This document shows positions 1-19,953 of a stretch of DNA of 35,530 bases, in pieces. The DNA is taken from NCBI GenBank assembly GCA_964359035.1, contig CAYHRM010000001.1, positions 1-35,530 on the forward strand, written 5' to 3'. Every line of letters starts with the position of its first letter. Position 1 is the first letter of the stretch. The notes beneath the pieces are model-generated. The model did not search any database. It was not told where the DNA came from and was given only the letters and a program-made list of their open reading frames with translations. The DNA is from an uncultured Planctomycetales bacterium. Its GTDB lineage: Bacteria; Omnitrophota; Gorgyraeia; Gygaellales; Profunditerraquicolaceae. The position numbers and the translations under genes are program-made.

Positions 1-462
1 TCGAGAGTCATAATGAGAACAAGTAATTATGCCTTGGGCTTTCCGACATGAGCTAGGAGAAAAAAATCCGAAAGATATCCTTTCCGGAATGCTGTAATGC
101 GAAGCATGGGAATTACAAGAAACATCCCAGCAGCCAATAACGGTCTTGGGGCAATACGATAACAGCGGAGCCGAATACCAAGGCGCAAAAAACAAATCCA
201 GTTTTGCTTTTTTAACCGCAAAAGGCATAAGTAGCTGTTCTCCTAGGATTCTGCGGCTTTTCAATAATTTCGGACCTTTAATTAATACGCTCTCAAATAA
301 ACTGTTTTTCAAGAATACATCGGACGGAATACGGTTTTGAAAAAATAGCACATACCTATGTTTTTTCGACATCCGAGGCCATAGTTTGAGCATATTAATT
401 AAATACCTAGTAACTCCTCCGATATTCCATTCCAGGCATCTAGCATCAATTCCTATTCTCAT
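1..462 (-). CDS. Glycosyltransferase, GT-B fold / family 4-like; N-terminal 154 codons, gene continues past the window start
   Basis: The frame is open from the ATG at 462 to the window edge, so it has no stop and is missing from the supplied track. My translation is MRIGIDARCLEWNIGGVTRYLINMLKLWPRMSKKHRYVLFFQN...AKLDLFFAPWYSAPLLSYCPKTVIGCWDVS... This is the usual N-terminal layout of GT4 (RfaG/WbdA-like) enzymes. Purine-rich AAGAGGAAGAA lies directly upstream. The ATG is 13 nt after the methyltransferase stop. Confidence 0.7.
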   Translation of the reverse strand, partial: MRIGIDARCLEWNIGGVTRYLINMLKLWPRMSKKHRYVLFFQNRIPSDVFLKNSLFESVLIKGPKLLKSRRILGEQLLMPFAVKKAKLDLFFAPWYSAPLLSYCPKTVIGCWDVSCNSHASHYSIPERISFGFFSPSSCRKAQGIITCSHYDSR

Positions 463-475
463 TTCTTCCTCTTAA

Positions 476-1300
476 TTATGCTTTGATTCCGTAAATTGTA
501 TAAGTTATTCCTAAGTTTTTGGTAAATAAATTTTTAGTTGCATTGAATTTACGCCAATATGGAGTAAGCTTCTGCATCAGGTTAACATAAACTCTTTGAA
601 GCGAAAGCGGTAAAGCCAAAACGGGAAAAGGTGAAGTGACTAAACCAACCACAGAATTTAATCCGGCATTTCTACACATGTCAAGATAACCCTTTAAAGG
701 TAATGCACTCACCTTATAATCAGTGGGAATGTTTCTGACCATTCTAAAAACATCATTAAATCTTCCTCTAAATAAATTCATTGCTGAACAAGCAACGGTC
801 CTCTCAACATCTGCTATCGTCTGAATACTAAATTTATTTGGTACCAAGTTAGCCGCAAAGATTCCCCCCGGCTTTAAAACACGCACCATTTCATCAATTG
901 GTTTTTGAGCATTATCAAAAAATTCCAATACCCCTCCGCTAAAAACTATATCAAATTGCTTTTCCTTAAGACAAAGATTGTTCATATCTGAAATAATAAA
1001 CCGAGCTCCTAAAAATAACCGGTTAAGGTTAGCTTCGGCTTGTTTCAGTGCCGTTTCAGAATAGTCAAGCAAAGTACATTGGTAACCGCGCTGGGCCATA
1101 TACCCAGAAACATTGGCGCTGCCGCATCCGCATTCAAGCATTTTTTTTCCAGAAGCTAACTTTACAAATATATCAAACCAGTATTCGCAGGCCATTCTGC
1201 GGACTAAATCACTATACGGATGGCAAATGCTTTCAGTAAATACAGCTGAAGAAGATTGTTTTGACCAAAAGCCTTCCCACCATTCTTTAGTATTACTCAT
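476..1300 (-). CDS. Class I SAM-dependent methyltransferase
   Basis: 274 aa. Motif I is LECGCGSANVSGYMAQRG, the acidic loop is LLDYSE and the post-II motif is VLKPGGIFAAN. The ATG shares 1 nt with the upstream stop (TAATG). Confidence 0.85.
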   Translation of the reverse strand: MSNTKEWWEGFWSKQSSSAVFTESICHPYSDLVRRMACEYWFDIFVKLASGKKMLECGCGSANVSGYMAQRGYQCTLLDYSETALKQAEANLNRLFLGARFIISDMNNLCLKEKQFDIVFSGGVLEFFDNAQKPIDEMVRVLKPGGIFAANLVPNKFSIQTIADVERTVACSAMNLFRGRFNDVFRMVRNIPTDYKVSALPLKGYLDMCRNAGLNSVVGLVTSPFPVLALPLSLQRVYVNLMQKLTPYWRKFNATKNLFTKNLGITYTIYGIKA

Positions 1301-2418
1301 TATCCCCGCTTCTCAGATATAATTGCCTCTACCGCCGAAACGACCTCATCTATTTGTGTTTCTTTAAGCGCAAGTCCAGATGGTAAATATAAACCTTGCG
1401 CCGAGATTTTTTCTGTTACTGGATAATTTTGGCCCTTAAATAAACCTAAGTTTTGCAGAACCGGCTGCTGATGCATCCCGATGAAAAATGGCCGTGCTTC
1501 AATGCCTCTTTGTTTAAGCGCAGTAATCATCTCATCCGCATTAATACCTAAACAATCAGCTAATTCTATACAATACATCCAGTAAACAGTTTTAGCCCAA
1601 GATTTTTCAACCTGTGTTTTTATTCCTTTAATCGAAGAAAATCTCTTTTTATAATATTGCCCCAGTCTTCTCTTGATTTTAATAAATTCATCAATCCGCC
1701 CCATTTGAGCCACGCCAATTGCCGCTTGCAAATTGGTTATCCGGTAATTATTACCCAATTCTGTATGATAGAATCTTCTTTCTGGCTTAAAACAAAGATT
1801 TCGATATGATTTGGCCCTTTCTGACATCTTCTTATTCCTCGTAATGACCATCCCGCCTTCACCGGTAGTAATAATTTTGTTCGCAAAAAATGAGAATGCG
1901 GCAATATCGCCGATACTGCCGCACTTTCTGTTCTTATACTCTGCTCCGTGAACTTCTGCGGCATCTTCAATAACAATCAAATTATGTTTTTTGGCTATTT
2001 GCATAACCGGATCCATATCCACCGGATGGCCATAAATATGAACAGGCATTATCCCCTTGGTCTTACGAGTAATCTTTGATTCAATCTGCGTTACATCCAT
2101 ATTCCAAGTATCCGACTCAGCATCAACCAAAACAGGAATAGCTCCTAGTCGTAAGATTGCTAAGACACATGAAATAATAGTAAAAGATGGTAAAATAACC
2201 TCATCTCCTTTACCAATACCTGCAGCAAACAAAGCTGTTTCAAGAGCTGCTGTACCATTACAAACAGCTATTCCGTAATCTACTCCGATATAAGAAGAAA
2301 ACAATTGTTCAAATTTACAGACAAAAGGTCCGTCAGAAGATATCCACCCTGAATTAATACATTCGGCTAATAATTCTTTTTCGCGTCCGTTTAATAATGG
2401 CTGATTTACCGGTATCAT
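1300..2418 (-). CDS. DegT/DnrJ/EryC1-family PLP sugar aminotransferase, perosamine-synthase-like
   Basis: 372 aa with NGTAALETAL, EDAAEVHGA and the PLP-lysine box FSFFANKIITTGEGGMV. It lies two genes downstream of gmd, so a GDP-4-keto-6-deoxymannose aminotransferase is the best guess. The specificity is inferred, not shown. Confidence 0.85.
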   Translation of the reverse strand: MIPVNQPLLNGREKELLAECINSGWISSDGPFVCKFEQLFSSYIGVDYGIAVCNGTAALETALFAAGIGKGDEVILPSFTIISCVLAILRLGAIPVLVDAESDTWNMDVTQIESKITRKTKGIMPVHIYGHPVDMDPVMQIAKKHNLIVIEDAAEVHGAEYKNRKCGSIGDIAAFSFFANKIITTGEGGMVITRNKKMSERAKSYRNLCFKPERRFYHTELGNNYRITNLQAAIGVAQMGRIDEFIKIKRRLGQYYKKRFSSIKGIKTQVEKSWAKTVYWMYCIELADCLGINADEMITALKQRGIEARPFFIGMHQQPVLQNLGLFKGQNYPVTEKISAQGLYLPSGLALKETQIDEVVSAVEAIISEKRG

Positions 2419-2423
2419 AACGA

Positions 2424-2828
2424 TTAATCCTTTTCCTTCTGGAACTTTTCTTTATCCTCAATATAAGGACCGTTTTTTACTTCAATAATCGTAGCTGCTT
2501 CCAAAATCTTAATTCCATGACCTCCTTCAACCAATAAAATTACATCTCCAGCCGATAATTTTCTGCTCTCCAGATAAGTTTTATCAGCTAAATAAAAATC
2601 AATCTCGATTACTCCGCTTTTAACAAAAAGCACTTCATGGGTTCCCAAAGTATTCCTGGTCACAAGCTTATGGATATGCGGTTTCACCTCATGCCCTGCC
2701 GGGTGGCTCAAATAACCCAATTGCAATTGGGCGTTGTTATCCGTAAGGAAAGAAATTCCTTCATTATGGAAATCTTTCCGCAGAATTATTGCGATTAATT
2801 TATTTTGATATACAATTCTCTCAATCAT
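2424..2828 (-). CDS. Small cupin-fold protein (WbuC / sugar ketoisomerase-like), function unresolved
   Basis: 134 aa with a single cupin signature, HPAGHEVKPHIH ... GDVILLVEGGHG. It overlaps the gmd stop by 8 nt. This is a family-level call only. Confidence 0.55.
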   Translation of the reverse strand: MIERIVYQNKLIAIILRKDFHNEGISFLTDNNAQLQLGYLSHPAGHEVKPHIHKLVTRNTLGTHEVLFVKSGVIEIDFYLADKTYLESRKLSAGDVILLVEGGHGIKILEAATIIEVKNGPYIEDKEKFQKEKD

Positions 2829-3876
2829 CTATACTAATATAGCGAGACAACGTTTTTCTTTCATCCGGATAATTTATCGCATCCCACGGAAACCGCTCTC
2901 CTTTTTGCCATCCTTCCCAGCGCTTAATATCCTCCTTAACCATTATTTCAACTAATTGCTTAAACGCAACTTTAGGAGTCCAACCTAAAATCTTTTTTGC
3001 TTTTGTAGAATCACCACATAGCTTATGAACCTCTAAAGGTCTAAAAAACTTTTTATCAATCACGATATATTTTTTATAATCCAAATTAACATGTTTAAAA
3101 GCAACGTCTAAAAGCTCTTCTATGGAATGCATCTGTCCTGTGGCAATTACAAAATCCTGAGGTTTATCCTGTTGTAAAATCATCCACATTGATTCCACAT
3201 AATCTACAGCAAAACCCCAGTCTCTTTGCGCATTAATATTACCCAATGTTATATTTTTACTAAACCCAAGTTGAATCTTGGCAACCGCATTAGTAATCTT
3301 ACGGGTTACAAATTCCAGCCCCCTTAACGGAGACTCGTGATTAAAAAGAATCCCATTGGCCGCAAACAAACCATAAGCCTCCCGATAAATCCTAGTTGTC
3401 CAGTAGCCATACAACTTAGCAGCCGCATAAGGACTCCGCGGATGAAAAGGAACTTCTTCATTTTGCTTATAATCATAAATGCCACCGTATAATTCGCTTG
3501 TAGAAGCCTGATAAAATTTAATTTTGGGGTTTATCTGCCTGATTATTTCCAGAATCCTAGTTGTCGCCATACCAGAAACATCCGTAGTATTAATCGGTTG
3601 CTCAAAAGATGCGCCGACAAAACTCTGGGCAGCAAGATTATATATCTCATCCGGTCCAGAAATTCTAATTGCTTCAAACAAAGAAGCGCTATCTGAAAGT
3701 TCTGCCGGGATTAGTTCAATTTTATCAAAAATATTTAAATACTGTAGCCTCCAAAAATTAGGAGAAGAAAGCCTGCGGTAAGTACCATATACTTTATAAC
3801 CTTTATTAAGTAAAAATTGGGCAAGGTAAGAACCGTCCTGCCCCGTTATCCCGGTGATTAGTGCTTTTTTATACAT
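2821..3876 (-). CDS. gmd: GDP-mannose 4,6-dehydratase
   Basis: 351 aa. ALITGITGQDGSYLAQFLLNKGYKVYGTYRR and YAAAKLYGYWTTRIYREAYGLFAANGILFNHESPLRG are textbook Gmd motifs. Confidence 0.93.
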   Translation of the reverse strand: MYKKALITGITGQDGSYLAQFLLNKGYKVYGTYRRLSSPNFWRLQYLNIFDKIELIPAELSDSASLFEAIRISGPDEIYNLAAQSFVGASFEQPINTTDVSGMATTRILEIIRQINPKIKFYQASTSELYGGIYDYKQNEEVPFHPRSPYAAAKLYGYWTTRIYREAYGLFAANGILFNHESPLRGLEFVTRKITNAVAKIQLGFSKNITLGNINAQRDWGFAVDYVESMWMILQQDKPQDFVIATGQMHSIEELLDVAFKHVNLDYKKYIVIDKKFFRPLEVHKLCGDSTKAKKILGWTPKVAFKQLVEIMVKEDIKRWEGWQKGERFPWDAINYPDERKTLSRYISIDD

Positions 3877-5284
3877 ATGATATTCCTTTCAATAATGTCG
3901 TAAATTTTTTATAAGTGCCGCTTATCCCCTCATTAATTAGTTTATTCTTCACTAAACCTAAAGCATATAAAGGATGTTTTTTCATATAATTTAATCGTAT
4001 TCTATTTTCCGACCAAATCCTTAATCTATTCAATTCTTCAGGTTCAAAAGAAGTAAAATTAACCAGAGTAGGGGCATCAGACATATATCCGCCTTCGAGA
4101 TTTTCGAGAAAAGTTACCTCATCTTTAATTATTTTGTTATTAACACAATCATCCCAAAGCGGGCTTCCCGGCAATGGCGTTATGGGCGAAAATTCAACGA
4201 AAGGCTCATCAACTCTTCTAAAAAATTCAATTGTTTCTTTGATCGTTAACATATCTTCCCCAGGATACCCAAATGTAAATTGTAAAACCGGTTTTAATCC
4301 AGCCTTCTTGGTAAATTTGATAATTTCTTCTGCTTTCTTTATTTCAATCTTTTTATTCATGGCATTCAAAATTTTTTGGCTGGCTGATTCTATGCCATAT
4401 CCGATTGAGGTGCATCCAGACTGTTTCATCTTTCTTAGGATCTCTTCATCAATTAAATTAATTCTTCCCTGGCAACTCCAGCTAACCTTTAAAGGAGAAA
4501 TATTTTCGCAAATCTCCAATATCCTGTTTTTATTAGTAATTAATAATTCATCGCTAAAAAAAATCCGCCTTACTCCGTATTTGGTTTTAAGAAATGAGAT
4601 TTCTTCCATAATATCCTTTATCGGCCTTAGCCTGATACCGGAAAATGATTTGGAACAAAAAGTACACTCATAAGGGCATCCTCTGCCACATGATATATTC
4701 AATGTCTTTTGGCCCTGGCTTAACCCGGAATGCGAAAGTTTATCGATATAGATATCCATCGGGAATATTTCATATGGAATACGGGGCAAACTATGCAAAT
4801 CTTTTATATATTCCCTCGGAGGATTTACCTCTATCTCAACGCCGCTCTTATAGGCAATACCCTTTACTCCGGAAAGATTATTTAAATTTGCCAATAATTC
4901 CTTGATAGTATTTTCACCTTCGCCTATCACGCATATATCCACATCCGTAGTCTCAAGAACAATCTTAGCGCTATACGTTGCCAATACCCAACCAAGAATT
5001 ATTTCCTTATCTTTATGCAATTCTTTAATTTTTGATGCCAACCATTTGACGTATTTATACTGTGTGCTCATAGCACTGATGCCTATAACATCAAACACAT
5101 TATCCTTAATAATGCTCATAACTTTTTCATCCGATAAACCCAAAGCATAAATATCCAGAATCTCAACTTCATGCCTTGCTTCTAGAATTGCCCCGGCTAC
5201 GTATCCTAAACCCACAGGAAAGAAAACTTCTTTACGGGTTTTATCTTGATACCTATTAGGAAGATTTATAAGAAGTATTTTCAT
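3869..5284 (-). CDS. Cobalamin (B12)-binding-domain radical SAM enzyme (class B-like)
   Basis: 471 aa. The N-terminus has a Rossmann-like B12-binding layout (KILLINLP...FPVGLGYVAGAILEARHEVEILD...DVIGISAMS). The CxxxCxxC cluster motif CGRGCPYECTFC follows. It overlaps both neighbouring genes (1 nt and 8 nt). Confidence 0.85.
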   Translation of the reverse strand: MKILLINLPNRYQDKTRKEVFFPVGLGYVAGAILEARHEVEILDIYALGLSDEKVMSIIKDNVFDVIGISAMSTQYKYVKWLASKIKELHKDKEIILGWVLATYSAKIVLETTDVDICVIGEGENTIKELLANLNNLSGVKGIAYKSGVEIEVNPPREYIKDLHSLPRIPYEIFPMDIYIDKLSHSGLSQGQKTLNISCGRGCPYECTFCSKSFSGIRLRPIKDIMEEISFLKTKYGVRRIFFSDELLITNKNRILEICENISPLKVSWSCQGRINLIDEEILRKMKQSGCTSIGYGIESASQKILNAMNKKIEIKKAEEIIKFTKKAGLKPVLQFTFGYPGEDMLTIKETIEFFRRVDEPFVEFSPITPLPGSPLWDDCVNNKIIKDEVTFLENLEGGYMSDAPTLVNFTSFEPEELNRLRIWSENRIRLNYMKKHPLYALGLVKNKLINEGISGTYKKFTTLLKGISYV

Positions 5285-6753
5285 TATAAAACTATCTCAC
5301 TTTTTTTATTTAATAAGGTTTTAATCGTTGTAAAAATCCCCTTATATTGCGCCTGAAACAATGCCGCAAAAATAAGGGTTATTACCAAAGCGCTGATAAA
5401 AGCCATAATAAATTCTGAGTAATTTAAAATATTAAATAATAATTTTAACAAAATTATTATTACCCCACCCAAGATAAACGGCAAAAACAGTCTAAAAATC
5501 GACTTAAATATTTCAAGATAACCGTCCCCAACATACCTGAATGCGCAAGAAATGATGAATATACTATAAAGAGAAAACAAAAACGCGGTTACAACAGCAA
5601 CGCCGGTTATATTATTTGTAAATTTTATGACAAAATAATTCCCGGTTAACATCAGGATAATTCCAATAGCTTGAGCCAGGATAATAACCCTCTGTTTATT
5701 TACTGCCACCAGAAAATTTCCAGTAATTGTTGCCAAAGAAATAAAAAATACCCCGATAATTATGAAGTTAGCCGATTTTATTCCCGCTAGATACTTATAA
5801 AAAAAAGTTTTATACATAAACGGCAGAGATGCTATCAAAAGGCAACTGGTCAAGGCAACAATATAGCTCATTAATGCCATTACTTTATGAATATACAATT
5901 TAAATTTTAGCAGGTCATTATCTTTACCAAACTTTTCGCGTATCAACGGAAAAATTACATAAGCAAATACAGACATCATCCCAAATAAAAGATTCGAAAT
6001 TGATACACCAAAAGCATAATAACCTAATTGGGATTTCTCCAAGTATTTTGCAATCACCCAGCGGTCAATACTCGTGAATATCGTAAACCCAATACCGATA
6101 ATAACCAAAGGAAAACCCGTATGAATAATCCTTATTAACCTGCTGACGCTCAAATTAATTTTAAAGGTCAGTTTTGAACGTAACATACAAAATAGGAGAG
6201 AGATTGCATATGCCATAATTAAAGCTACCAGCGTAGCATATAATTTATTAAAAACAGATTTATAAGCCAGAAGCAACAGTAAGACCGAAGAAACTGCCAA
6301 TACCGCATTTGTTATGCCTATGGTACCGAATTTTTTATCTGCTCTTAACACCGTCAGATAAAAATTTTGCAGTGCAGACGTAAAAACTAATACTGACAAT
6401 AACCTTACGCCTACATTAACTTCGCTTGAATGCGAGAAAAACGGGAAAAATGATACTACTAATAAAGTTACGGCCAAAGCTAAATACGCAATATTAAACC
6501 AGGTAAATGCTACATTCTTTACATTGGCGACTTCTTCATAATTTAATTTCCCTCTTAAAAAAGGGATTGTTTTATCCATACCAGAAAGTATCCCTAACTC
6601 ACACCAAAGACCATAAGAAAGAATTACTGTAAATAAATTAAACACGCCATAGATTGCCGGATCCAAAGCCCTAGCAATTATAAATACCTTTGCAATATTA
6701 AAAGGGTATGAAATGATGTTCCCGGTTAATACTTTTATTGATCCTTTAATCAT
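5284..6753 (-). CDS. Wzx-type polysaccharide flippase (MOP superfamily)
   Basis: 489 aa, very hydrophobic, with roughly 12-14 hydrophobic segments by eye. Size and context are typical of O-unit or EPS flippases. Family-level call. Confidence 0.75.
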   Translation of the reverse strand: MIKGSIKVLTGNIISYPFNIAKVFIIARALDPAIYGVFNLFTVILSYGLWCELGILSGMDKTIPFLRGKLNYEEVANVKNVAFTWFNIAYLALAVTLLVVSFFPFFSHSSEVNVGVRLLSVLVFTSALQNFYLTVLRADKKFGTIGITNAVLAVSSVLLLLLAYKSVFNKLYATLVALIMAYAISLLFCMLRSKLTFKINLSVSRLIRIIHTGFPLVIIGIGFTIFTSIDRWVIAKYLEKSQLGYYAFGVSISNLLFGMMSVFAYVIFPLIREKFGKDNDLLKFKLYIHKVMALMSYIVALTSCLLIASLPFMYKTFFYKYLAGIKSANFIIIGVFFISLATITGNFLVAVNKQRVIILAQAIGIILMLTGNYFVIKFTNNITGVAVVTAFLFSLYSIFIISCAFRYVGDGYLEIFKSIFRLFLPFILGGVIIILLKLLFNILNYSEFIMAFISALVITLIFAALFQAQYKGIFTTIKTLLNKKSEIVL

Positions 6754-6756
6754 TAT

Positions 6757-9466: not shown

Positions 9467-10467
9467 ATCCTGATTATCTCATCCTGATAAAAATTTTTCT
9501 TTGCAATCTTATCCAACAGAAAATCCCAGCGCATAGGGCTTATCCCTGTGCCCGGCCTTTTAACAGCAATATTTTTTTCAGTAAAATACTCCTCTTTTTT
9601 AATATTTGCCCTGGCAACAATGCTTTTCCGAACCACATTAATATTGGCCCTTTCGGATGGCGAAGGCCGCTTAACACCGGACCCCATAGCTTCCTCAATA
9701 TTACGCACAGCTTTTATCATGTACTTTAATTCTTCCGGCTCAAGGCTAGCCCTATGGTCAGGCCCAGTCATATTTTTATCAAGAGTAAGATGTTTTTCAA
9801 TCACGCTGGCGCCTAAGGCTATTGCGGCAAACACAATTTCTGTCCCCAGGGTATGATCGGAATAGCCCACCGCTACGCCCAGTGTGTTTTTCATGGTAAC
9901 CATGGCCAGCAGATTAGCGTCTTTAAAGGGCGTAGGATATTCAGTATTACAATGCAAAACTACAATATTTTTCTTTTTTGTACCGCTCTTTATTAAAACG
10001 CTTAAAGCGACTTTTACTTCAGATAGCGAAGACATCCCGGTAGACATAATAATTTTTTTGCCTAAAGACCCGATCTTGCGCAGATAAGGCAAATTGGTTA
10101 TTTCGCCGGAAGGTATTTTAAAAGTTCTTAGCCCCAAACCCACCAACAGATCAATACTTTCTAAATCAAATGCCGAAGAAAGAAATATGATTCTTTTCTT
10201 CCGGCAATAACTAAGTAACTCTTTATGCGCCTTAGCATCCAGCTCTAACTTTTTAAGCATTTCAAGTTGATTTTCATTCTTGTCTGTAGCTTTTTCCTGG
10301 TATACAGCTTTAGGTGAATATTTCGAAGCTAATGATTCCGCCTTAAAACTCTGGAATTTAACTGCATCTGCACCTGCATATACCGCTGCATCAACAAGCC
10401 GCTTAGCAGTTTTTAATGAACCATTATGATTTACCCCAGCTTCAGCAATAATGAATACTTTAGGCAT
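9463..10467 (-). CDS. legI: Nonulosonic acid synthase (NeuB/LegI family) with C-terminal SAF domain
   Basis: 334 aa with IAEAGVNHNGSLKTAKRLVDAAVYAGADAVKFQ and GYSDHTLG. The SAF-like tail is VRKSIVARANIKKEEYFTEKNIAVKRPGTGISP. Confidence 0.92.
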   Translation of the reverse strand: MPKVFIIAEAGVNHNGSLKTAKRLVDAAVYAGADAVKFQSFKAESLASKYSPKAVYQEKATDKNENQLEMLKKLELDAKAHKELLSYCRKKRIIFLSSAFDLESIDLLVGLGLRTFKIPSGEITNLPYLRKIGSLGKKIIMSTGMSSLSEVKVALSVLIKSGTKKKNIVVLHCNTEYPTPFKDANLLAMVTMKNTLGVAVGYSDHTLGTEIVFAAIALGASVIEKHLTLDKNMTGPDHRASLEPEELKYMIKAVRNIEEAMGSGVKRPSPSERANINVVRKSIVARANIKKEEYFTEKNIAVKRPGTGISPMRWDFLLDKIAKKNFYQDEIIRI

Positions 10468-11107
10468 TTTTTCTTATTTCTTTACAAGGATTTCCATAGA
10501 CAATAACCCTACTATGAACATTCTTGGTAACCACGCTTCCAGCCCCCACTAATGACTCTTCGCCAATTCTCACATCTTGAGTAATAATGCTTCCTATACC
10601 AATATGGCTATTTTTGCCTACCCAGACGCCTCCGCTTAATAAAGATCCAGGAGAAAGATGAACAAAATCACCTATCTCACAATCATGCTCGATAATTGCG
10701 GCTGTGTTAATAATACAGTTATCGCCGATTTTAACGCCAGAATTAATAATTGTTCCCGAGGCGACATAATTGCCTTGCCCTAAAATAACACTGGGAGATA
10801 TTACAGCCAAAGGGCTGATTAAATTCGGAAATCTAAAACCGATTTTTTTAGCAAGCTTACATAACTTAATGCGTAATCTGGGAATACCGATGCTTCCTAC
10901 CGAAATAAAACAATCTTTTATCCCTGATTTGAAAATTTTAGCCAAATTATCGTCGGTTCCAATAACTGGAACTCCACAAACTTTATTCCCCAGCTGCGCT
11001 TTTAAATCAACTATGCCAGCTATTTCATAATTTTTAATACTAAAAAGCAAATCTAGGATTACCCTGCAATGACCGCCACCGCCAATAAGCAATATTTTTC
11101 TTTTCAT
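10460..11107 (-). CDS. legH: NeuD/PglD-family hexapeptide-repeat N-acetyltransferase
   Basis: 215 aa. The N-terminal Rossmann-like segment is ILLIGGGGHCRVILDLL. Left-handed beta-helix repeats follow (IGDNCIINTAAIIEHDCEIGDFVHLSPGSLLSGGVWVG...). Confidence 0.85.
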   Translation of the reverse strand: MKRKILLIGGGGHCRVILDLLFSIKNYEIAGIVDLKAQLGNKVCGVPVIGTDDNLAKIFKSGIKDCFISVGSIGIPRLRIKLCKLAKKIGFRFPNLISPLAVISPSVILGQGNYVASGTIINSGVKIGDNCIINTAAIIEHDCEIGDFVHLSPGSLLSGGVWVGKNSHIGIGSIITQDVRIGEESLVGAGSVVTKNVHSRVIVYGNPCKEIRKNA

Positions 11108-11116
11108 TTTCTTAGG

Positions 11117-12175
11117 TTAGATTTCAAACTTTTTAAAGGTTTCCTGAAGGGCCTCAAATTGCCCCATGTCCAGCCAGGATTTATCCGAAACCGGATAAAC
11201 CCCCACTTTTTCACCACGACCAAGATAATCATTTATAAGGTCTGTAATATTATAAAATTGATTCTTGGGAACATCATTAATAACCGATTTCTCTAAAACA
11301 TACATTCCTGTATTTACTAGAAAATCGTACTCTGGCTTCTCGCGAATATTATTCAGTATCCCCCCTTTTTCAATTTCGCATACTCCGTAGGGGATAGTAA
11401 AATTCTTCATTGAACTGACCAAGGTGATCTTATTTTTTTTCTGCTTATGAAATTTAAGTATATCCGCGTAATTAGCCTCAATAAGAATATCGCAATTACT
11501 TACAAAAAATGTCTTTTTGATATGCTTTTTAAGCAAATAAAGGCTGCCAGCAGTACCCAAGGGCTTAGTCTCTAAGATATAATTGATTTTATATTTGTGA
11601 TCAGTATCGTTAAAATATGCCTTGATTATATTTGACTTATAGTTTAATGAAAGATAAAAATCATTGCATCCGTAATCAAAAAACCTATTAATAATTACTT
11701 CAATAACCGGCTTATCTCCGATCGGCATCAAGGGCTTTGGAATAATCTTGGTAAAAGGGTGTAGCCTAGCCCCTTCTCCTCCGGCCATAATCACTACTGG
11801 CGTATTTAATGATTTTAGTGTCTTCTGCTTATTCTTAAAAAGATCCACCCACCAAACAGCAGCAACAACGTTTTTATCGCTATTTATAACCGGCAAACAT
11901 TCAACCTTTTTATTAACCATGATAGCTTTGGCGATTTCCTGCTCATAATTCTCTTTCAAACTCAAAGGCGCAGAATTCATGACATTTGAAACAGCTACAA
12001 GCAAGCTCTTACCTTTAAGGATCCATCTTCTGATGTCTCCATCTGTAACGGTTCCCAAAAGCCGGGTTTCTTTATCAACGACAAACATGGTCTTTTCTCC
12101 GACCGTATCCATATGCCTTAATACATGTTTGATCGTTTGTTCCGGACTTATAAGTATCCTCTTAAGCCTTTCCAT
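11117..12175 (-). CDS. ptmE: CBS-domain sugar-phosphate nucleotidyltransferase (PtmE-like)
   Basis: A tandem CBS region (VVDKETRLLGTVTDGDIRR ... LPVINSDKNVVAAV) is followed by the NTP-transferase motif VVIMAGGEGARLHPFTKIIPKPLMPIG. I place the start at the ATG at 12175 (MERLKRIL), 1 nt after the legC stop and with GGGGGA upstream. I do not use the TTG at 12214 from the track. Confidence 0.78.
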   Translation of the reverse strand: MERLKRILISPEQTIKHVLRHMDTVGEKTMFVVDKETRLLGTVTDGDIRRWILKGKSLLVAVSNVMNSAPLSLKENYEQEIAKAIMVNKKVECLPVINSDKNVVAAVWWVDLFKNKQKTLKSLNTPVVIMAGGEGARLHPFTKIIPKPLMPIGDKPVIEVIINRFFDYGCNDFYLSLNYKSNIIKAYFNDTDHKYKINYILETKPLGTAGSLYLLKKHIKKTFFVSNCDILIEANYADILKFHKQKKNKITLVSSMKNFTIPYGVCEIEKGGILNNIREKPEYDFLVNTGMYVLEKSVINDVPKNQFYNITDLINDYLGRGEKVGVYPVSDKSWLDMGQFEALQETFKKFEI

Positions 12176-12176
12176 T

Positions 12177-13349
12177 TTAATTATCCCCCTGTAAATCCCG
12201 TATAACCGAAACAATATATTTTATCTGATTTACTTCCAGATTTGTGCTACAAGGAAAATTCAAAACATCTCTCCAGAACCTAGGAGCTTTTTCAATTTTA
12301 TATTTCTGATTACTCTTATAAGGCCGTTGAAGATGATTTAATCGCCATATAGGTCTGGTTTGAATATCTTTTAACTGCAAGCGCTTCATAACTGCATCCC
12401 TATTCATACCAAATTCACCCTTATTAATAAGCAGAGAATAAAACCAATAGTTGGGTGCTGTTCCTTCCGGAATACCTAAAATCTTAAGACCCTTTATTCC
12501 TCTAAGAAGTTCATGATATAATTTATAATTTTTCTTTTTAATCTTTATAAAACTTTTTAACCGTTCCAGTTGCGCCAAACCTAAAGCCGCCTGTAAATTT
12601 GTCAAACGAAAGTTATAACCTATTTCATTGTGAATGCTCTTTACAGGGTCATCCTTAGCCTGATTAGTTAAATATCGGACTTTATCAGCCAAGGCTTTGT
12701 TATTAGTTACAATCATTCCCCCGCCACCTGAGGTAATTATTTTGTTACCATTAAAAGAATAGACGCCCACATCGGAAACGGTCCCGGTAAACTTATTTTT
12801 AAAAATACCGGCAGTATAGTATGAACCTAGACTTTCAGTAGCATCTTCAACAACTTTTAAATGGTATTTTCGGGCAATGCTCGTAATCTTTTCCATATTG
12901 CAGGGGTTACCGAAAATATGGACAGGAATAACTGCCCGGATAGTTTTACCGGTCTTCTTATTTTGCAGCCCCGATTTAGTGAGCCGGCATTCATGTCTGC
13001 AGAATTCGCTTAATTTCTCAGGATCGATATTCATATAATCATCACAGTCCATGAAAATCGGTTCCGCACCAGCGTATTTAATAACATTAACGGTAGCAAT
13101 AAATGTAAGCGTAGGAACAATTACTTCATCTTTAGGCCTAATACCGCAAACTTTAAGCGCAATATACAAACCAGAAGTTCCATTTACACAAGCAATAGCA
13201 AATTTCGAGCCGGTGTATTTAGAAATGGCTTTTTCAAAATCCGTAACAAATTTTCCTGCAGAAGATACCCAGTTAGAAGTTATACAGCGCTTAACATATT
13301 CTAACTCTTTACCCTCTAAATTCGGTACAGATAACGGTATGCTTTTCAT
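12177..13349 (-). CDS. legC: DegT-family aminotransferase, LegC-like
   Basis: PLP-lysine box YSFNGNKIITSGGGGMIV. I place the start at the ATG at 13349 (MKSIPLSVPNLEGKELEYV), 4 nt after the legB stop. The track ORF start at 13550 would overlap legB by about 200 nt and adds non-homologous sequence. Confidence 0.85.
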   Translation of the reverse strand: MKSIPLSVPNLEGKELEYVKRCITSNWVSSAGKFVTDFEKAISKYTGSKFAIACVNGTSGLYIALKVCGIRPKDEVIVPTLTFIATVNVIKYAGAEPIFMDCDDYMNIDPEKLSEFCRHECRLTKSGLQNKKTGKTIRAVIPVHIFGNPCNMEKITSIARKYHLKVVEDATESLGSYYTAGIFKNKFTGTVSDVGVYSFNGNKIITSGGGGMIVTNNKALADKVRYLTNQAKDDPVKSIHNEIGYNFRLTNLQAALGLAQLERLKSFIKIKKKNYKLYHELLRGIKGLKILGIPEGTAPNYWFYSLLINKGEFGMNRDAVMKRLQLKDIQTRPIWRLNHLQRPYKSNQKYKIEKAPRFWRDVLNFPCSTNLEVNQIKYIVSVIRDLQGDN

Positions 13350-13353
13350 AATT

Positions 13354-14343
13354 TTATATATTATAAATTCCGTCCTTATAAATATTTCTATTTTTCTTAA
13401 ACCATTCGATTGTCTTGTGCAGTCCTTTTTCCAGAGTATATTTCGGAGTCCATTTAAAAATTCTTTTGGCTTTTGAATTATCAGCCAATAATCTTTTGAC
13501 TTCGCTTTTCTGCGGTCTCTTACGTTGAAGCTCAGATTCAATCTTGGCACTACTTCCCAAATATTTAGTAATCAAGCCAACTAATTCTTTAATCGAAATT
13601 TCCGAGTTGCTGCCAAGATTAATAACTTCGCCAATAGCTGCCGAACTTTTCATACAGCAAATAAAACCTTCAACTGTATCCTCAACATAAGTTAAATCAC
13701 GAGTTGGAGACAAGGCTCCAAGTTTTATTTTCTTTCTACCACTAAGAATCTGCGTAATAATTGTGGGAATTATCGCTCGCGCTGACTGACGTGGACCGTA
13801 AACATTAAACGGACGAACAACAGCAACTGGTAGATCAAAAGAACGGTAAAATGACAACGCTATAAAATCAGCAGCAGACTTAGTTGCTGCATAAGGCGAT
13901 TGCGGATTCACCGGATGAGCTTCAGTAATCGGGACGAACTGTGCAGATCCGTAAACTTCGCTCGTAGAAGTATGAATAATTCTACTAACGCCAAGATCTT
14001 TTGCTGCCTGCAAAACATTAAGCGTCCCTTTTATGTTCGTTTCAACATACGCTTCAGGAGAATAATAAGAGTAAGGAATACCGATTAGTGCTGCCAGATG
14101 AAAAACAGTATCTACTTTGTGCATCGCCAGGCGTACGATATCAGCATCCCGAATGTCTCCAGAAATTACTTCTATTTCATCTTTATACATTGAGCTTTCC
14201 AGCCAACCCCATGAATTCCTTGAATTATAATGCACAAATGCTTTCACTTTATACCCCAGAGCTGCCAACCTATCAACCAGATGGCTGCCGATAAATCCGC
14301 CTGCGCCTGTTACCATAACTGATTTTTTATTTTTTTTATTCAT
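13354..14343 (-). CDS. legB: NAD-dependent NDP-GlcNAc 4,6-dehydratase, LegB-like SDR
   Basis: 329 aa with VTGAGGFIGSHLVDRL, HTSTSEVYG, SPYAATKSAAD and RPFNVYGPRQSARAIIPTIITQ. As I recall Campylobacter LegB, this matches it closely. Confidence 0.82.
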   Translation of the reverse strand: MNKKNKKSVMVTGAGGFIGSHLVDRLAALGYKVKAFVHYNSRNSWGWLESSMYKDEIEVISGDIRDADIVRLAMHKVDTVFHLAALIGIPYSYYSPEAYVETNIKGTLNVLQAAKDLGVSRIIHTSTSEVYGSAQFVPITEAHPVNPQSPYAATKSAADFIALSFYRSFDLPVAVVRPFNVYGPRQSARAIIPTIITQILSGRKKIKLGALSPTRDLTYVEDTVEGFICCMKSSAAIGEVINLGSNSEISIKELVGLITKYLGSSAKIESELQRKRPQKSEVKRLLADNSKAKRIFKWTPKYTLEKGLHKTIEWFKKNRNIYKDGIYNI

Positions 14344-14345
14344 TT

Positions 14346-15041
14346 TTAATTTTTAAGCCTCTTTCTTAATGCTATCCCGGCAAATTCTAAATCTGTCACA
14401 GTATCAATATCAATAGAATTTTCAGGCGTCATTATTAATGGCCTTGTGTCCTTACCTAAAATACTTTTTTGATTAATCAAGACACTGCGCTTAAACACAT
14501 AGATAGCTCCATTCATTCTATATACTTTAGGTAAATCCTGTCTACGCAAGTATTGCCGCGATTTAATAAATGGATGGACTTTATCCTTTTTGATGATGCG
14601 CATCCAATAAGGAGAATGTTCCGCTAAACAAAGACTTACTACAGAATCAGCTTTAGAATTTATAAGTTTAACTACAGCTTTATCAATATCAATAGCTGTT
14701 CTTAACGGGGAGGTCGGCTGCAGAATTAGAATGATATTAAACTTTTCCCCCTTCTTTTCAAGGTAATCAACTGCATGCCTTATTACCGGATACATACCAG
14801 TTTTGTCTGTCGCTAAATTCTTGGGACGCAAAAAAGGAGCTTCTGCTCCTAACTGTAAAGCAATAGTTTTTATTTTCTTTGAATCAGTAGAAACAATAAG
14901 CTTATCAATAAATTTAGATTTTTTCGCTTCTTTGATGGAATAATAAATCAGAGGCTTGCCGTTTAATCTTTTAATATTCTTATCCTTTATCCCCTTTGAA
15001 CCGCTACGCGCCGGGATTATGGCTAAACAGTAATTTTTCAT
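14346..15041 (-). CDS. legF: Acylneuraminate cytidylyltransferase family (CMP-nonulosonate synthetase)
   Basis: 231 aa with AIIPARSGSKGIKDKNI and LQPTSPLR. An ATGA overlap joins it to wzz. Confidence 0.88.
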   Translation of the reverse strand: MKNYCLAIIPARSGSKGIKDKNIKRLNGKPLIYYSIKEAKKSKFIDKLIVSTDSKKIKTIALQLGAEAPFLRPKNLATDKTGMYPVIRHAVDYLEKKGEKFNIILILQPTSPLRTAIDIDKAVVKLINSKADSVVSLCLAEHSPYWMRIIKKDKVHPFIKSRQYLRRQDLPKVYRMNGAIYVFKRSVLINQKSILGKDTRPLIMTPENSIDIDTVTDLEFAGIALRKRLKN

Positions 15042-15865
15042 TTTTCTTTATTTTTATTCCAAAATTCCATAAAAAAAGCTAAAAATACACCCAACATTAA
15101 ACTGAGCATCCCAGCAATAAAAACTTTTTGTACCTTATTAGGCCCTACGGAATTCGTAGTCTTAATTGGCGCATCGAAAACCTTAAAATCCTTAGAATTA
15201 GCAAGTAAAATTTGAAAGTCATTTCTTTGGTTTCTAAGATTAGTAAGATTATTTTCATATTGAGGAAGGGTATTTTGAAGAATAATCATTCTTGATGATA
15301 CTTCTGCTTGCGAAATATCTTTAGAGCTTGGAATACCCATAATCAGGTTTTGTGTCCTAACTATATCTTCTTCAGCATTCTTAACTGCTCCCTGTAGTTC
15401 CTTTAAACGCCCATTCATAATAAATTCCCGCTCCTTGTACATATTTTGCCCTTGGACAATAAGTAGATTTACTATGGCATCATTAATCTTAAAAGCCACA
15501 TCAATACTAGGATAAGTTATATTTATTTTTAATAAATTGGTGCCTTTTACATCACTGATTTTAATAATTTTCTTAAGGTCCTCAACAGTAATCTTAAGAT
15601 TTAAATCATTTATTATAGTTAAAAGTGAATTTTGATTCAGCATTATCGATTTCGCTTCTTCATTGTTAATTAAAGGCTCATTAATGCTTCCAAGCTGAAT
15701 AATAGAAGTAATTTCATAAATCTTGGGCATACGAAGGCTAACTATGGAAGCAATGACCACTGAAAGCAAAAATATGATTAAAATAAACTTTTTTCTTTTA
15801 ATTATGACATTGACATATTCTTTGATGTCGATTTCGTCTTTTTGAATGTATTGTTGGTTTTCCAT
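15038..15865 (-). CDS. Wzz-like polysaccharide co-polymerase / chain-length determinant
   Basis: 275 aa. The N-terminal TM segment is FILIIFLLSVVIASIVSL and the C-terminal TM segment is VFIAGMLSLMLGVFLAFFMEFW. The middle looks coiled-coil-like. A strong AGGAGG SD lies upstream. Confidence 0.7.
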   Translation of the reverse strand: MENQQYIQKDEIDIKEYVNVIIKRKKFILIIFLLSVVIASIVSLRMPKIYEITSIIQLGSINEPLINNEEAKSIMLNQNSLLTIINDLNLKITVEDLKKIIKISDVKGTNLLKINITYPSIDVAFKINDAIVNLLIVQGQNMYKEREFIMNGRLKELQGAVKNAEEDIVRTQNLIMGIPSSKDISQAEVSSRMIILQNTLPQYENNLTNLRNQRNDFQILLANSKDFKVFDAPIKTTNSVGPNKVQKVFIAGMLSLMLGVFLAFFMEFWNKNKEK

Positions 15866-15877
15866 GCGTTCCTCCTG

Positions 15878-16213
15878 TTAAGCACCGCTTTTACTACTCA
15901 ATGAATGCTCCATCTCTTGCTTCAATTGATTGTATTCTACTTCTTTAGTTTGTAAAAAATGTTGAAGAAGCTTGAATCTTTCTTCCAAGCCCTTCTCGGT
16001 TAAAAAATAATTGATTTTCTTTAGTTTTCCGGGGTGAATAGTAAAACTTTTGGCTTTGATAGAACCCCTTAAAATAAGCTCACGTAGAAGATAGTTAGTT
16101 TTACCTAAAGAGATGTTTAAACGCGCTGAAATATCCCGCTGAGTAACATTTGGGTTGGCTTCTAACTCCTTGAAAATAAAGAGAGTTTCTTCTTTTTTGG
16201 GCTGTTCAGTCAT
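15878..16213 (-). CDS. EPS-associated MarR-family winged-helix regulator
   Basis: 111 aa with TQRDISARLNISLGKTNYLLRELILRGSIKAKSF ... INYFLTEKGLEE. It is the first gene of the glycan operon. Confidence 0.7.
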   Translation of the reverse strand: MTEQPKKEETLFIFKELEANPNVTQRDISARLNISLGKTNYLLRELILRGSIKAKSFTIHPGKLKKINYFLTEKGLEERFKLLQHFLQTKEVEYNQLKQEMEHSLSSKSGA

Positions 16214-16222
16214 TGAACAAAT

Positions 16223-16250
16223 ATTATAACCAAGCGAGAGGAAAAGTCAA
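16223..16250 (-). promoter_or_regulatory. Sigma70-type promoter for the glycan operon: TTGACT-16 nt-TATAAT
   Basis: The minus strand reads TTGACTtttcctctcgcttggtTATAATatttgttcaATG. The -35 is at 16245..16250, overlapping the peptidase stop codon. The -10 is at 16223..16228. Only 9 nt separate the -10 from the ATG and there is no SD. Confidence 0.55.
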
Positions 16251-17041: not shown

Positions 17042-17047
17042 AGAGAA

Positions 17048-17056
17048 ATTATAACA
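17048..17056 (-). promoter_or_regulatory. Extended -10 promoter (TGtTATAAT), 6 nt before the peptidase ATG
   Basis: The minus strand reads tgTGTTATAATttctctATG. There is no convincing -35 and no SD, so the geometry suggests a leaderless mRNA. Confidence 0.4.
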
Positions 17057-17060
17057 CAAA

Positions 17061-19827: not shown

Positions 19828-19837
19828 GTTTCTCCCC

Positions 19838-19925: not shown

Positions 19926-19953
19926 ACTTAAACCGAGACAACGGCCGCTATCA

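Follow-up and report, generated by a model that had tools for sequence, protein, structure and literature searches.

Gene content and layout of the locus

The 35.5-kb window analyzed here (35,530 nucleotides) is the entire contig CAYHRM010000001.1 (C1) of assembly GCA_964359035.1, a metagenome-assembled genome (MAG) of an uncultured bacterium in the Omnitrophota. The MAG comprises 1.31 Mb in 188 contigs and is 86% complete. Every open reading frame (ORF) in the window is on the minus strand, and 18 genes run in series from a MarR-type regulator gene (16213) to a fragment of a glycosyltransferase gene that meets the contig end at base 1. These genes, read here as part of a surface-glycan locus, fall into a legionaminic acid (Leg) block at 15041–6757 and a block for a GDP-mannose-derived sugar at 3876–476, together with genes for glycan assembly and export. 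In order of transcription, the features are as follows (scores are in bits; SAM, S-adenosylmethionine; EPS, exopolysaccharide; GlcNAc, N-acetylglucosamine).

16223–16250, minus strand: sigma-70-like promoter match (TTGACT, 16-nt spacer, TATAAT; 11/12 positions)
15878–16213, minus strand: MarR-family EPS-associated regulator, 111 aa, first gene of the unit (TIGR04176 MarR_EPS, 91.9 against a cut-off of 88; Pfam HTH_24 and MarR_2)
15038–15865, minus strand: Wzz-like chain-length determinant, 275 aa (Pfam Wzz, E = 7.8e-9, N-terminal part only)
14346–15041, minus strand: CMP-nonulosonate synthetase in the LegF role, 231 aa (Pfam CTP_transf_3, E = 2.5e-28)
13354–14343, minus strand: LegB, NAD-dependent GDP-GlcNAc 4,6-dehydratase, 329 aa (TIGR04180, 488.5 against a cut-off of 475)
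12177–13349, minus strand: LegC aminotransferase, 390 aa (TIGR04181, 482.4 against a cut-off of 420)
11117–12175, minus strand: PtmE-like protein with CBS and nucleotidyltransferase domains, 352 aa, presumed GlcNAc-1-phosphate guanylyltransferase (Pfam CBS and NTP_transferase)
10460–11107, minus strand: LegH-type left-handed beta-helix N-acetyltransferase, 215 aa (TIGR03570 NeuD/PglB/VioB, 223 against a cut-off of 160.8; Pfam PglD_N and Hexapep)
9463–10467, minus strand: LegI nonulosonate synthase, 334 aa (TIGR03569, 486.4 against a cut-off of 399.65)
8294–9466, minus strand: LegG hydrolysing NDP-sugar 2-epimerase, 390 aa (TIGR03568 NeuC_NnaA, 474.7 against a cut-off of 235.9)
7413–8297, minus strand: N-formyltransferase with N- and C-terminal domains, 294 aa (Pfam Formyl_trans_N and Formyl_trans_C)
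6757–7416, minus strand: PIG-L/LmbE-type zinc de-N-acetylase, 219 aa (Pfam PIG-L, E = 9e-21; HPDDE and HSDH motifs intact)
5284–6753, minus strand: Wzx-type flippase, 489 aa (Pfam Polysacc_synt_3 and Polysacc_synt)
3869–5284, minus strand: B12-binding radical SAM enzyme, 471 aa (Pfam B12-binding and Radical_SAM; CPYECTFC at residue 203)
2821–3876, minus strand: Gmd1, GDP-mannose 4,6-dehydratase, 351 aa (TIGR01472; TSELYG and YAAAK intact)
2424–2828, minus strand: cupin-fold protein of an unnamed family, 134 aa (invariant H51, H53, E65 and H104)
1300–2418, minus strand: perosamine-synthase-like GDP-ketosugar aminotransferase, 372 aa (Pfam DegT_DnrJ_EryC1, E = 2.7e-117)
476–1300, minus strand: class I SAM-dependent methyltransferase, 274 aa, N- or O-methylation (Pfam Methyltransf_11, E = 2.8e-22)
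1–462, minus strand: GT4 glycosyltransferase, N-terminal 154 aa of 373, completed on contig C79 (Pfam Glycos_transf_1 on the C79 part)

Junctions were computed after two over-extended gene starts had been trimmed. The LegC start was moved from GTG 13550 to ATG 13349, 4 nt past the legB stop, which gives 390 aa (orthologues, 385–389 aa). The PtmE-like start was moved from TTG 12214 to ATG 12175, which is preceded by GGGGGA and gives 352 aa. From the MarR gene to the GT4 gene, the 17 junctions measure +12, −4, +2, +4, +1, +9, −8, −4, −4, −4, +3, −1, −8, −8, +5, −1 and +13 nt, so that no gap exceeds 13 nt and each overlap is of 1, 4 or 8 nt. A first-pass annotation, made from the sequence alone, had described ATGA, TAATG or 8-nt overlaps and gaps of 13 nt or less with no hairpins between genes; the recomputed junctions match this description, and every one of them leaves too little space for a hairpin.

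Loci used for comparison are cited by number, among them L004 (GCA_028712375.1, the closest relative, from Omnitrophica), L006 (a WOR-1/Saganbacteria-type contig), L008 (the flagellin glycosylation island of Thermoanaerobacterium xylanolyticum LX-11) and L011 (a 42.6-kb contig).

A legionaminic acid block with a formyltransferase and a deacetylase

Pathway calls were made with NCBIfam equivalog hidden Markov models (HMMs) and their curated cut-offs. LegB, LegC, LegG and LegI pass. The corresponding models for pseudaminic acid (Pse) fail, with PseB scoring 84 on LegB (cut-off 408), PseC 245 on LegC (cut-off 423.5) and PseI 273.4 on LegI (cut-off 340.25). The PseF model scores 184 on the cytidylyltransferase, under its cut-off of 205.7, and no LegF or Leg-specific model exists for this enzyme. 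TIGR03569 does not separate NeuB from LegI, so the Leg call for the synthase leans on the neighboring LegB and LegC. A NeuC-type hydrolysing 2-epimerase has no place in the Pse pathway, and the N-acetylneuraminic acid (Neu5Ac) pathway has no need for LegB, LegC or a CBS-nucleotidyltransferase. The passing Leg models, the failing Pse models and the presence of both the NeuC-type epimerase and the CBS-nucleotidyltransferase point to Leg rather than Pse or Neu5Ac, and support assignment of the block to a GDP-type legionaminic acid pathway. The profile-HMM comparison thus agrees with the pathway called in the first-pass annotation, and each member of the full core that it listed (LegB, LegC, LegH, LegG, LegI and LegF) has an equivalog or family match. 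The PtmE-like protein has no equivalog model, and its presumed role as GlcNAc-1-phosphate guanylyltransferase comes from its architecture and position; orthologues of 353–358 aa occupy a conserved position in the Leg blocks of L008 and L010–L013.

In the proposed route, the PtmE-like enzyme would make GDP-GlcNAc, which LegB would dehydrate at C4/C6. LegC would then aminate C4 and LegH would acetylate the C4 amine. Release of GDP with 2-epimerisation by LegG would be followed by condensation of the product with phosphoenolpyruvate by LegI, and the cytidylyltransferase would activate the nonulosonate with CMP.

Downstream of legG are the genes for the formyltransferase and the PIG-L protein. The first-pass annotation had counted both in the second half of the array, with the GDP-sugar genes, but gene context in T. 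xylanolyticum, L011, L004 and L006 places them in the Leg block. The pair is ATGA-coupled to legG. In T. xylanolyticum the order is Maf, LegB, LegC, LegG, formyltransferase (294 aa), PIG-L, NeuB, PglD-like, CBS/nucleotidyltransferase and CTP_transf_3. That block lies beside flagellar genes with no GDP-mannose genes nearby, and its nine-gene set is the one found in the window, with 40%–64% amino acid identity (formyltransferase 56%, PIG-L 58%). Formyltransferase orthologues adjoin PIG-L in both L008 and L011, and neither gene is present in L004 and L006, which keep the GDP-sugar block and have no Leg genes.

The PIG-L subfamily is large (>2,300 clusters, with 53%–70% identity across Firmicutes, Pseudoalteromonas and Bacteroidota) and was found inside nonulosonate clusters in 5/5 other loci inspected. 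In L009, L010 and L012 (one Pseudoalteromonas genome and two metagenomic loci) it adjoins a GNAT acetyltransferase (Acetyltransf_9) instead of a formyltransferase, and this GNAT comes with either a 3-hydroxyacyl-CoA dehydrogenase or an AMP-ligase and a carrier protein. The common logic of these loci would be to strip an N-acetyl group and put a different acyl group in its place.

There are precedents for such tailoring. Halorubrum sp. PV6 displays 5-N-formyl-legionaminic acid, and its legG adjoins a predicted formyltransferase gene (PMC6137143). In "Candidatus Kuenenia stuttgartiensis", a deacetylase and a formyltransferase are encoded within a Leg-type cluster, and the CMP-nonulosonates measured there bear a single formyl group together with a single free amine (bioRxiv 10.64898/2026.04.20.719630). 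Because the Kuenenia modifications were seen on CMP-nonulosonates, they take place at the nucleotide-sugar stage. We assign the pair to the Leg block since it travels with Leg genes, is missing where these are missing, is coupled to legG and has these two precedents. PIG-L enzymes classically act on the 2-acetamido group of GlcNAc-type substrates. This target, together with acetylation by LegH of the C4 amine that becomes N7, favors N5 as the site of deacetylation and formylation. The PIG-L enzyme would remove an N-acetyl group, most plausibly the GlcNAc-derived one that becomes N5, after which the formyltransferase would add a formyl group or part of the pool would stay as the free amine. The predicted product of the block is CMP-Leg5Fo7Ac or a close variant.

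A proposed block for a GDP-mannose-derived sugar

The best solved relative of Gmd1 is 1RPN, the Pseudomonas aeruginosa Gmd (395 bits), and this relative and the intact motifs identify it as a bona fide GDP-mannose 4,6-dehydratase by sequence. The aminotransferase is closest among solved structures to the Caulobacter perosamine synthetase (3BN1/3DR4; E = 7e-97, 328 bits). Both fit the earlier label of a GDP-6-deoxyhexosamine module. The methyltransferase gene that follows the aminotransferase gene has the same position in L004, L011, L012 and L031.

All families named in the first-pass annotation were recovered by Pfam or NCBIfam apart from the 134-aa cupin, for which neither Pfam nor NCBIfam nor a PDB sequence search gave a match. 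An AlphaFold2 model built from a 48-sequence alignment is all-beta with a mean pLDDT of 93.4, and its Foldseek matches in the PDB are all cupins, those of the same size being WlaRA, WlaRB, FdtD, QdtA, FdtA and RmlC. A check for membership of the NDP-sugar 3,4-ketoisomerases of the FdtA/QdtA/WlaRA type found no Pfam FdtA match and no close fold match; the likeness consists of size, position of the HxH motif and the aminotransferase partner. Foldseek was also considered as a test of isomerase against epimerase function and set aside, as the matches are weak and cannot separate the two. A profile search at E ≤ 1e-10 found the family in 2,244 representative clusters, including fusions to short-chain dehydrogenase/reductase (SDR), GT2 and methyltransferase domains, which fit sugar chemistry and do not discriminate among functions.

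The cupin gene is followed directly by a perosamine-synthase (Per)-like aminotransferase gene in 12/12 loci with the downstream gene visible (the window, L004, L006, L007, L012, L013, L023–L027 and L031). This strict pairing argues that the cupin is an obligate partner acting on the 4-keto sugar before amination, and makes it a candidate GDP-4-keto-sugar isomerase or epimerase. It suggests an extra step ahead of amination, as opposed to a Per enzyme acting directly on the Gmd product.

The block continues on contig C79 (L003), whose last 98 nt (5694–5791) match window positions 1–98 at 97/98 positions. The joined GT4 protein has 373 aa and is 84% identical over 373/373 aa to its L004 orthologue. 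After the GT4 gene, C79 carries genes for a 402-aa 3-C-methyltransferase, a 330-aa Gmd paralogue, a 509-aa GT-B protein and a Wzy_C protein. The best solved relatives of the C-methyltransferase, aligned over the full length, are MtmC, TcaB9 and KijD1, all of them sugar 3-C-methyltransferases. The Gmd paralogue is located as follows.

C79 2790–3782, minus strand: Gmd2, Gmd paralogue, 330 aa (TSNMFG for TSELYG; YxxxK kept)

In an alignment, TSNMFG is present in 5/5 Gmd2 orthologues encoded near a C-methyltransferase (C79, L004, L006, L012 and L013). With TSNMFG in place of TSELYG, Gmd2 has Asn where the catalytic Glu would be. Its gene comes just after that for the TylC3-like C-methyltransferase. 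A NUDIX gene separates the two in L004, L006, L012 and L013, and on C79 there is only a 27-nt gap, with no NUDIX gene. The reductase Rmd was considered as an identity for Gmd2 and rejected, as the solved structures nearest to it are dehydratases and do not include 2PK3.

In the proposed route, Gmd1 would form GDP-4-keto-6-deoxymannose, the cupin would isomerise or epimerise it, the Per-like enzyme would aminate the cupin product, and the Methyltransf_11 enzyme would methylate it. The C79 3-C-methyltransferase and the Glu-less Gmd would add a C-methyl branch or make a second, branched 6-deoxy sugar.

Upstream of Gmd1, the B12-binding radical SAM enzyme has a class B layout, with a B12-binding domain and a CX3CX2C core. 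It belongs to no curated NCBIfam subfamily, all matches being far under cut-off, and its best solved relatives are AprD4 (79 bits), CysS and TokK. AprD4 is a sugar dehydratase, so methylation by this enzyme is not assured. Its gene adjoins that for Wzx in 5/6 loci and overlaps the Gmd1 gene by 8 nt both in the window and in L030. It is missing from L004, which has only the GDP-sugar block of the window, and from T. xylanolyticum, which has only the Leg block. We considered that the enzyme belongs to a nonulosonate block that is swapped as a unit; its lack in L004 fitted, but this was weakened by L030 (Wzx, radical SAM enzyme and Gmd1, with no Leg genes in view) and by L031. Glycan loci of L006 and L030 each have three or four B12-binding radical SAM paralogues amid glycosyltransferases, and these lineages may often use radical SAM chemistry on their surface sugars.

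Assembly, export and continuation of the locus

Wzx, Wzz and a Wzy_C domain protein (on C79, E = 2e-16) are all present, as in a Wzx/Wzy-type locus. Orthologues of the Wzz-like gene open loci L004, L010 and L011. As the first-pass annotation had stated, the array runs on past the window start, and contigs C79, C127 and C12 carry co-directional glycan genes. C127 encodes the Wzy C terminus, a 499-aa PMT_2-type GT-C enzyme, a DegT aminotransferase and a GNAT, and its end overlaps the start of C12 by 31 nt. C12 encodes an SDR, a GT2, a second GT-C, a GT2, an SDR, a methyltransferase, an AsnB-like amidotransferase and a GT4. The extended unit has about 33 co-directional, close-spaced genes in about 35 kb. 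Extension leftwards had been expected to supply further glycosyltransferases, a polymerase and an initiating transferase. The glycosyltransferases and Wzy_C are there; no initiating phosphoglycosyltransferase was found in the 35 kb followed, and one Bac_transf gene lies on contig C68.

The 509-aa GT-B protein matches the conserved C-terminal (CMP-binding) region of the BFO_1060 family (E = 2e-21), with a weak TIGR04396 match. It keeps the HP motif (KPHPAD); the D/E-D/E-G motif was not found in its sequence, and a sequence search against the PDB gave no usable match. By these features, this TagB/BFO_1060-like protein is a candidate nonulosonate transferase. The GT4 and GT-B enzymes would assemble the glycan, together with Wzx, Wzy_C and Wzz for its export and polymerization. 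Elsewhere in the genome are a ManC fragment and genes for 3-deoxy-D-manno-octulosonic acid (Kdo) and KdtA, and a PGM/GlmM-like mutase is encoded in the window. The Kdo genes indicate that the host probably makes lipopolysaccharide (LPS).

Downstream of Wzy, C127 and C12 (L020 and L029) have two pairs of a GT2 and a PMT_2-type GT-C, with the DegT, GNAT, SDR and AsnB-like genes; these look like Arn/Gtr-style polyprenyl-phosphate-sugar decoration systems joined to the glycan unit. Three assembly breaks fall within the glycan locus, one of them the 98-nt overlap with a single mismatch, a pattern that fits a population with variant locus cassettes. Contig C160 (L015) has at 1–2023 a partial PseC-like aminotransferase (356 bits) followed by a PseI-like synthase (312 bits against a cut-off of 340), and the organism or a co-binned strain may make a pseudaminic-type sugar too.

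Proposed upstream boundary of the unit

The promoter-like site at 16250–16223 ranks top of 73 hexamer pairs and is the sole 11/12 match in the 18 kb scanned; it is a match to the sigma-70 consensus only, which may not be the consensus of the host phylum. Its −10 hexamer ends 9 nt ahead of the MarR ATG. No Shine-Dalgarno sequence precedes this ATG, and a transcript from the site would thus have little or no leader. Two features lie upstream.

17059–16247, minus strand: papain-like peptidase gene (Peptidase_C1), upstream of the MarR gene
17118–17093: GC-rich hairpin of 11 bp between a 247-aa ORF and the peptidase gene (−20.8 kcal/mol, z = −7.5)

Given the peptidase gene and the stable hairpin, the 5′ end of the unit can reasonably be placed at 16.2 kb. 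The TGA stop of the peptidase gene falls within the −35 hexamer of the MarR promoter-like site. Farther upstream on the same strand, 16247–22629 holds rmlA, a weak rmlD-like gene, rmlB and genes for a Fic-domain/HTH protein, an SDR epimerase, a 247-aa protein of no family and the peptidase. The Fic gene is oddly placed amid sugar genes.

Recurrence and mosaicism of the two blocks

The combination of a Leg block with a GDP-sugar block is a recurrent mosaic architecture and not unique to the window. L011 has the order LegB, LegC, PtmE, LegH, LegI, LegG, formyltransferase, PIG-L, CMP synthetase, B12 radical SAM enzyme and Wzx, followed by Gmd, C-methyltransferase, cupin, aminotransferase, methyltransferase, GT-B and GT4. 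L012 and L013 have a Leg block and the same GDP-sugar genes as the window. L031 has the GDP-sugar genes, and its contig ends just upstream of the radical SAM gene. L006 retains a core of cupin, aminotransferase, C-methyltransferase, NUDIX and Gmd2 genes. Among 401 sampled genomes of the phylum, 52 had a LegB over cut-off and 29 had the cupin; the two lie ≤18 kb apart in at least 4 genomes of different families.

Identities differ between the blocks. Window and L011 are closest in the Leg block (LegG 94%, formyltransferase 88%, LegI 84%), with only 31%–65% identity in the GDP-sugar block. Window and L004 are 83%–96% identical in the GDP-sugar block (Gmd1 96%, Gmd2 92%, C-methyltransferase 89%), and the nonulosonate block of L004 is non-orthologous, with NeuB, an AP_endonuc_2 protein, a CBS-DegT fusion, a radical SAM/SPASM enzyme and a GFO_IDH protein. 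These mosaic identities indicate that lineages swap nonulosonate and GDP-sugar blocks independently of each other. A preprint describes hyper-variable polysaccharide cassettes in Omnitrophota and counts Gmd as part of the laterally transferred cargo (10.64898/2026.05.20.726742); independent block exchange fits that account and the assembly breaks inside the locus. We found nothing specific in the literature on nonulosonic acids in Omnitrophota.

In L004, the region that replaces the Leg block (1–8916) reads CTP_transf_3, NeuB, a LegH-like 202-aa protein, AP_endonuc_2, CBS-DegT (482 aa), Wzx, radical SAM/SPASM and GFO_IDH_MocA, an unusual ulosonic-acid module.

Interpretation and alternative readings

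We consider it probable, at roughly 78%, that the window holds the promoter-proximal half of a long, co-directional and translationally coupled Wzx/Wzy/Wzz-type surface-glycan locus, in which a Leg block with a formyltransferase and PIG-L is combined with a block for a GDP-mannose-derived sugar. Several points weigh against it. The contig joins depend on overlaps of 98 nt and 31 nt and, between C79 and C127, on collinearity with L004 only. A terminator-like hairpin lies within the aminotransferase gene at 1925–1895. Gmd1 scores 413.8 on TIGR01472, 1.2 bits under the cut-off of 415, and the fold matches of the cupin are weak (best E = 0.04, TM about 0.4 in Foldseek). Amination by the aminotransferase could be at C3 or C4. 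The GT-B protein scores 76.6 against the BFO_1060 cut-off of 200, and a Foldseek search with it, tried and set aside, gave generic GT-B/2-epimerase folds and no sialyltransferase signal. Of the catalytic triad known from ArnA, Fmt and PurN, the formyltransferase keeps His and Asp but has Gly at the Asn position (IGYHP, residues 100–104). The same Gly is found in the L011 and T. xylanolyticum orthologues; as it is common to all three aligned proteins, it is probably a trait of a nonulosonate-associated subfamily, and catalysis with Gly in the triad is a predicted activity. The modified nitrogen cannot be read from sequence, and the free amine in Kuenenia means that Leg5Fo7Ac is not the sole possible outcome.

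From the gene junctions we infer a single operon for the 18 genes. Internal promoters or attenuators could instead split them into the Leg block, the flippase and radical SAM genes, and the GDP-sugar block, which we consider unlikely but worth keeping in view. The blocks have different evolutionary partners, so each might bring its own signals, and terminator-like patterns number 27 against 14.5 ± 3.6 in shuffled sequence. Promoter-like hexamer pairs are also in slight excess (73 against 61 ± 7 expected, in AT-rich DNA). The intragenic hairpin has a 14-bp stem followed by CTCATTTTTT (−22.7 kcal/mol, z = −4.1) and may be an internal attenuator. However, it overlaps the codons of the conserved GDIAAFSFF pyridoxal phosphate (PLP) motif, and the matching stretch of the closest relative is weak (z = −1.3), so it is probably a chance product of coding sequence. 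No junction exceeds 13 nt, several are overlaps, and the only 11/12 promoter match is directly upstream of the MarR gene, all of which favor one unit. As to the acceptor, attachment to proteins (S-layer, pilins or another surface protein) is the less probable option beside an LPS O-antigen or capsule, although it has some weight. The Wzy_C family includes O-oligosaccharyltransferases. Two PMT_2-type GT-C enzymes are encoded downstream, and the Leg, formyltransferase and PIG-L block serves flagellin glycosylation in T. xylanolyticum. The sole specific match of the GT-B protein is to the Tannerella family of nonulosonate transferases for protein O-glycans (PMC5420450). Set against this are the combination of Wzz, Wzx and Wzy_C headed by a MarR_EPS regulator, which is typical of polymerised O-antigen or EPS, the Kdo and KdtA genes, which indicate LPS, and the lack of a Maf protein.

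It is also conceivable that the formyltransferase, alone or together with PIG-L, acts in the GDP-sugar branch and makes GDP-N-formylperosamine, as WbkC does in Brucella, leaving the nonulosonate as Leg5Ac7Ac. Gmd and a perosamine-synthase-like aminotransferase share the operon, and there is no other amino-sugar N-acyltransferase in 476–3876. WbkC is among the solved relatives (73 bits), but the likeness to the ArnA formyltransferase domain, the best of them, is greater (135 bits). The pair also sits with Leg genes and without GDP-mannose genes in T. xylanolyticum, and is missing from L004, L006, L012 and L013, all of which have the cupin-aminotransferase pair. With the coupling to legG and the Halorubrum and Kuenenia precedents also pointing to Leg, this alternative is highly improbable, and a WbkC-like perosamine formyltransferase was rejected on gene context. 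Within the GDP-sugar block, the cupin could be a GDP-4-keto-6-deoxymannose 3,4-ketoisomerase and its partner a C3 aminotransferase, yielding a mycosamine-type 3-amino-3,6-dideoxyhexose, with the C-methyltransferase and Glu-less Gmd making a separate branched 6-deoxy sugar. The adjacency in all 12 loci resembles that of fdtA-fdtB and qdtA-qdtB, and the cupin has the size of FdtA and an invariant HxH at 51 and 53, near the FdtA catalytic His residues at 49 and 51 (2PAM entry title). WlaRA, WlaRB, FdtD, QdtA and FdtA are among the same-size fold matches. Two separate branches would also fit the two Gmd-family genes and the fact that a quaternary 3-C-methyl carbon is incapable of 3,4-isomerisation. 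Yet the Foldseek E values are ≥0.04 with an rmsd of about 14 Å, and RmlC-type epimerases are among the matches too. The aminotransferase is nearest a C4 enzyme (perosamine synthase, 328 bits), with QdtB at only 211 bits, and the L011 order of Gmd, C-methyltransferase, a different cupin, aminotransferase and methyltransferase forms one linear pathway without Gmd2. We therefore regard the ketoisomerase as a tentative and rather unlikely assignment. More doubtful still is a fuller proposal, in which the cupin/Per-like pair, the 3-C-methyltransferase/Glu-less Gmd pair and the B12 radical SAM enzyme build an undescribed branched, methylated GDP-amino-6-deoxyhexose that is shown together with N-formyl Leg, the cupin family being a new class of GDP-ketosugar isomerase. 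To our knowledge, no enzyme has been assigned to GDP-4-keto-6-deoxymannose 3,4-ketoisomerase activity; if the proposal were true, the cupin family could supply it.

In the preferred reading of a two-block surface-glycan locus, the nonulosonate pathway and the locus type are known and the Leg tailoring has precedents. The GDP-sugar block draws on uncharacterised enzyme families, and no description exists of a glycan like the one predicted. The locus brings three enzyme groups with no assigned function into one pathway context (the cupin family without a Pfam model, the pair of a Glu-less Gmd and a C-methyltransferase, and a sugar-cluster B12 radical SAM enzyme), and they form a compact gene set for enzymologists to co-express. 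Nonulosonic acids shape the recognition of cells by phages, predators and hosts. With a genome of about 1.5 Mb, roughly 35–43 kb (2%–3%) is given to one glycan super-locus, which makes surface glycans a major investment for very small cells.

Comparison with known systems

The GDP-linked Leg pathway of Campylobacter jejuni, reportedly worked out by Schoenhofen et al. in 2009, uses PtmE, LegB, LegC, LegH, LegG, LegI and LegF. All seven enzyme roles are represented here, that of PtmE by a presumed counterpart, a CBS-nucleotidyltransferase of the same architecture. The genes differ in setting, being in a Wzx/Wzy/Wzz polysaccharide locus and not in a flagellin glycosylation island, and in tailoring, with PIG-L and a formyltransferase in place of the PtmG/PtmH acetimidoyl system. 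The operon also has no PtmA, PtmF or PgmL supply genes.

The first-pass annotation could match the tailoring set to no named cluster. This no longer applies to part of the set, which matches T. xylanolyticum, Kuenenia and Halorubrum PV6. As in Halorubrum, LegG adjoins a formyltransferase, and as in Kuenenia, a deacetylase and a formyltransferase are set among leg genes. LegH is not listed in the account of Kuenenia, whose products have a free amine, and the Halorubrum account mentions no deacetylase. All three organisms belong to other phyla and have other glycan contexts, and in none is the set tied to a GDP-mannose-derived block.

The GT-B protein resembles the Tannerella forsythia nonulosonate transferases Tanf_01245 and TFUB4_00887 (BFO_1060 family; PMC5420450) in its C-terminal region, its HP motif and its setting in a nonulosonate locus. 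It differs in being longer, with a different N-terminal half, and its orthologue persists in L004 beside a different nonulosonate block.

The GDP-sugar block shares a Gmd and a Per-related aminotransferase with the GDP-perosamine pathway of Caulobacter, Vibrio cholerae O1, Brucella and Escherichia coli O157. Unlike that pathway, it always has a cupin of an unnamed family between or beside the Gmd and aminotransferase genes, and the neighbors are a methyltransferase, a 3-C-methyltransferase, a Glu-less Gmd and a B12 radical SAM enzyme rather than PerB or WbkC. 3-C-Methyltransferases of the kind found on C79 serve in dTDP-linked routes to 4-amino-3-C-methyl sugars of the sibirosamine and kansosamine types. 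A GDP route with a TylC3/MtmC/TcaB9-type 3-C-methyltransferase has been proposed for virenose in Coxiella (PMC3539893). The locus follows the logic of these branched-sugar pathways, with a dehydratase, a C-methyltransferase, a cupin, an aminotransferase and a methyltransferase. It departs from them in having no dedicated 4-ketoreductase, in a nucleotide that is presumably GDP, and in the Glu-less Gmd that is the constant partner of the C-methyltransferase.

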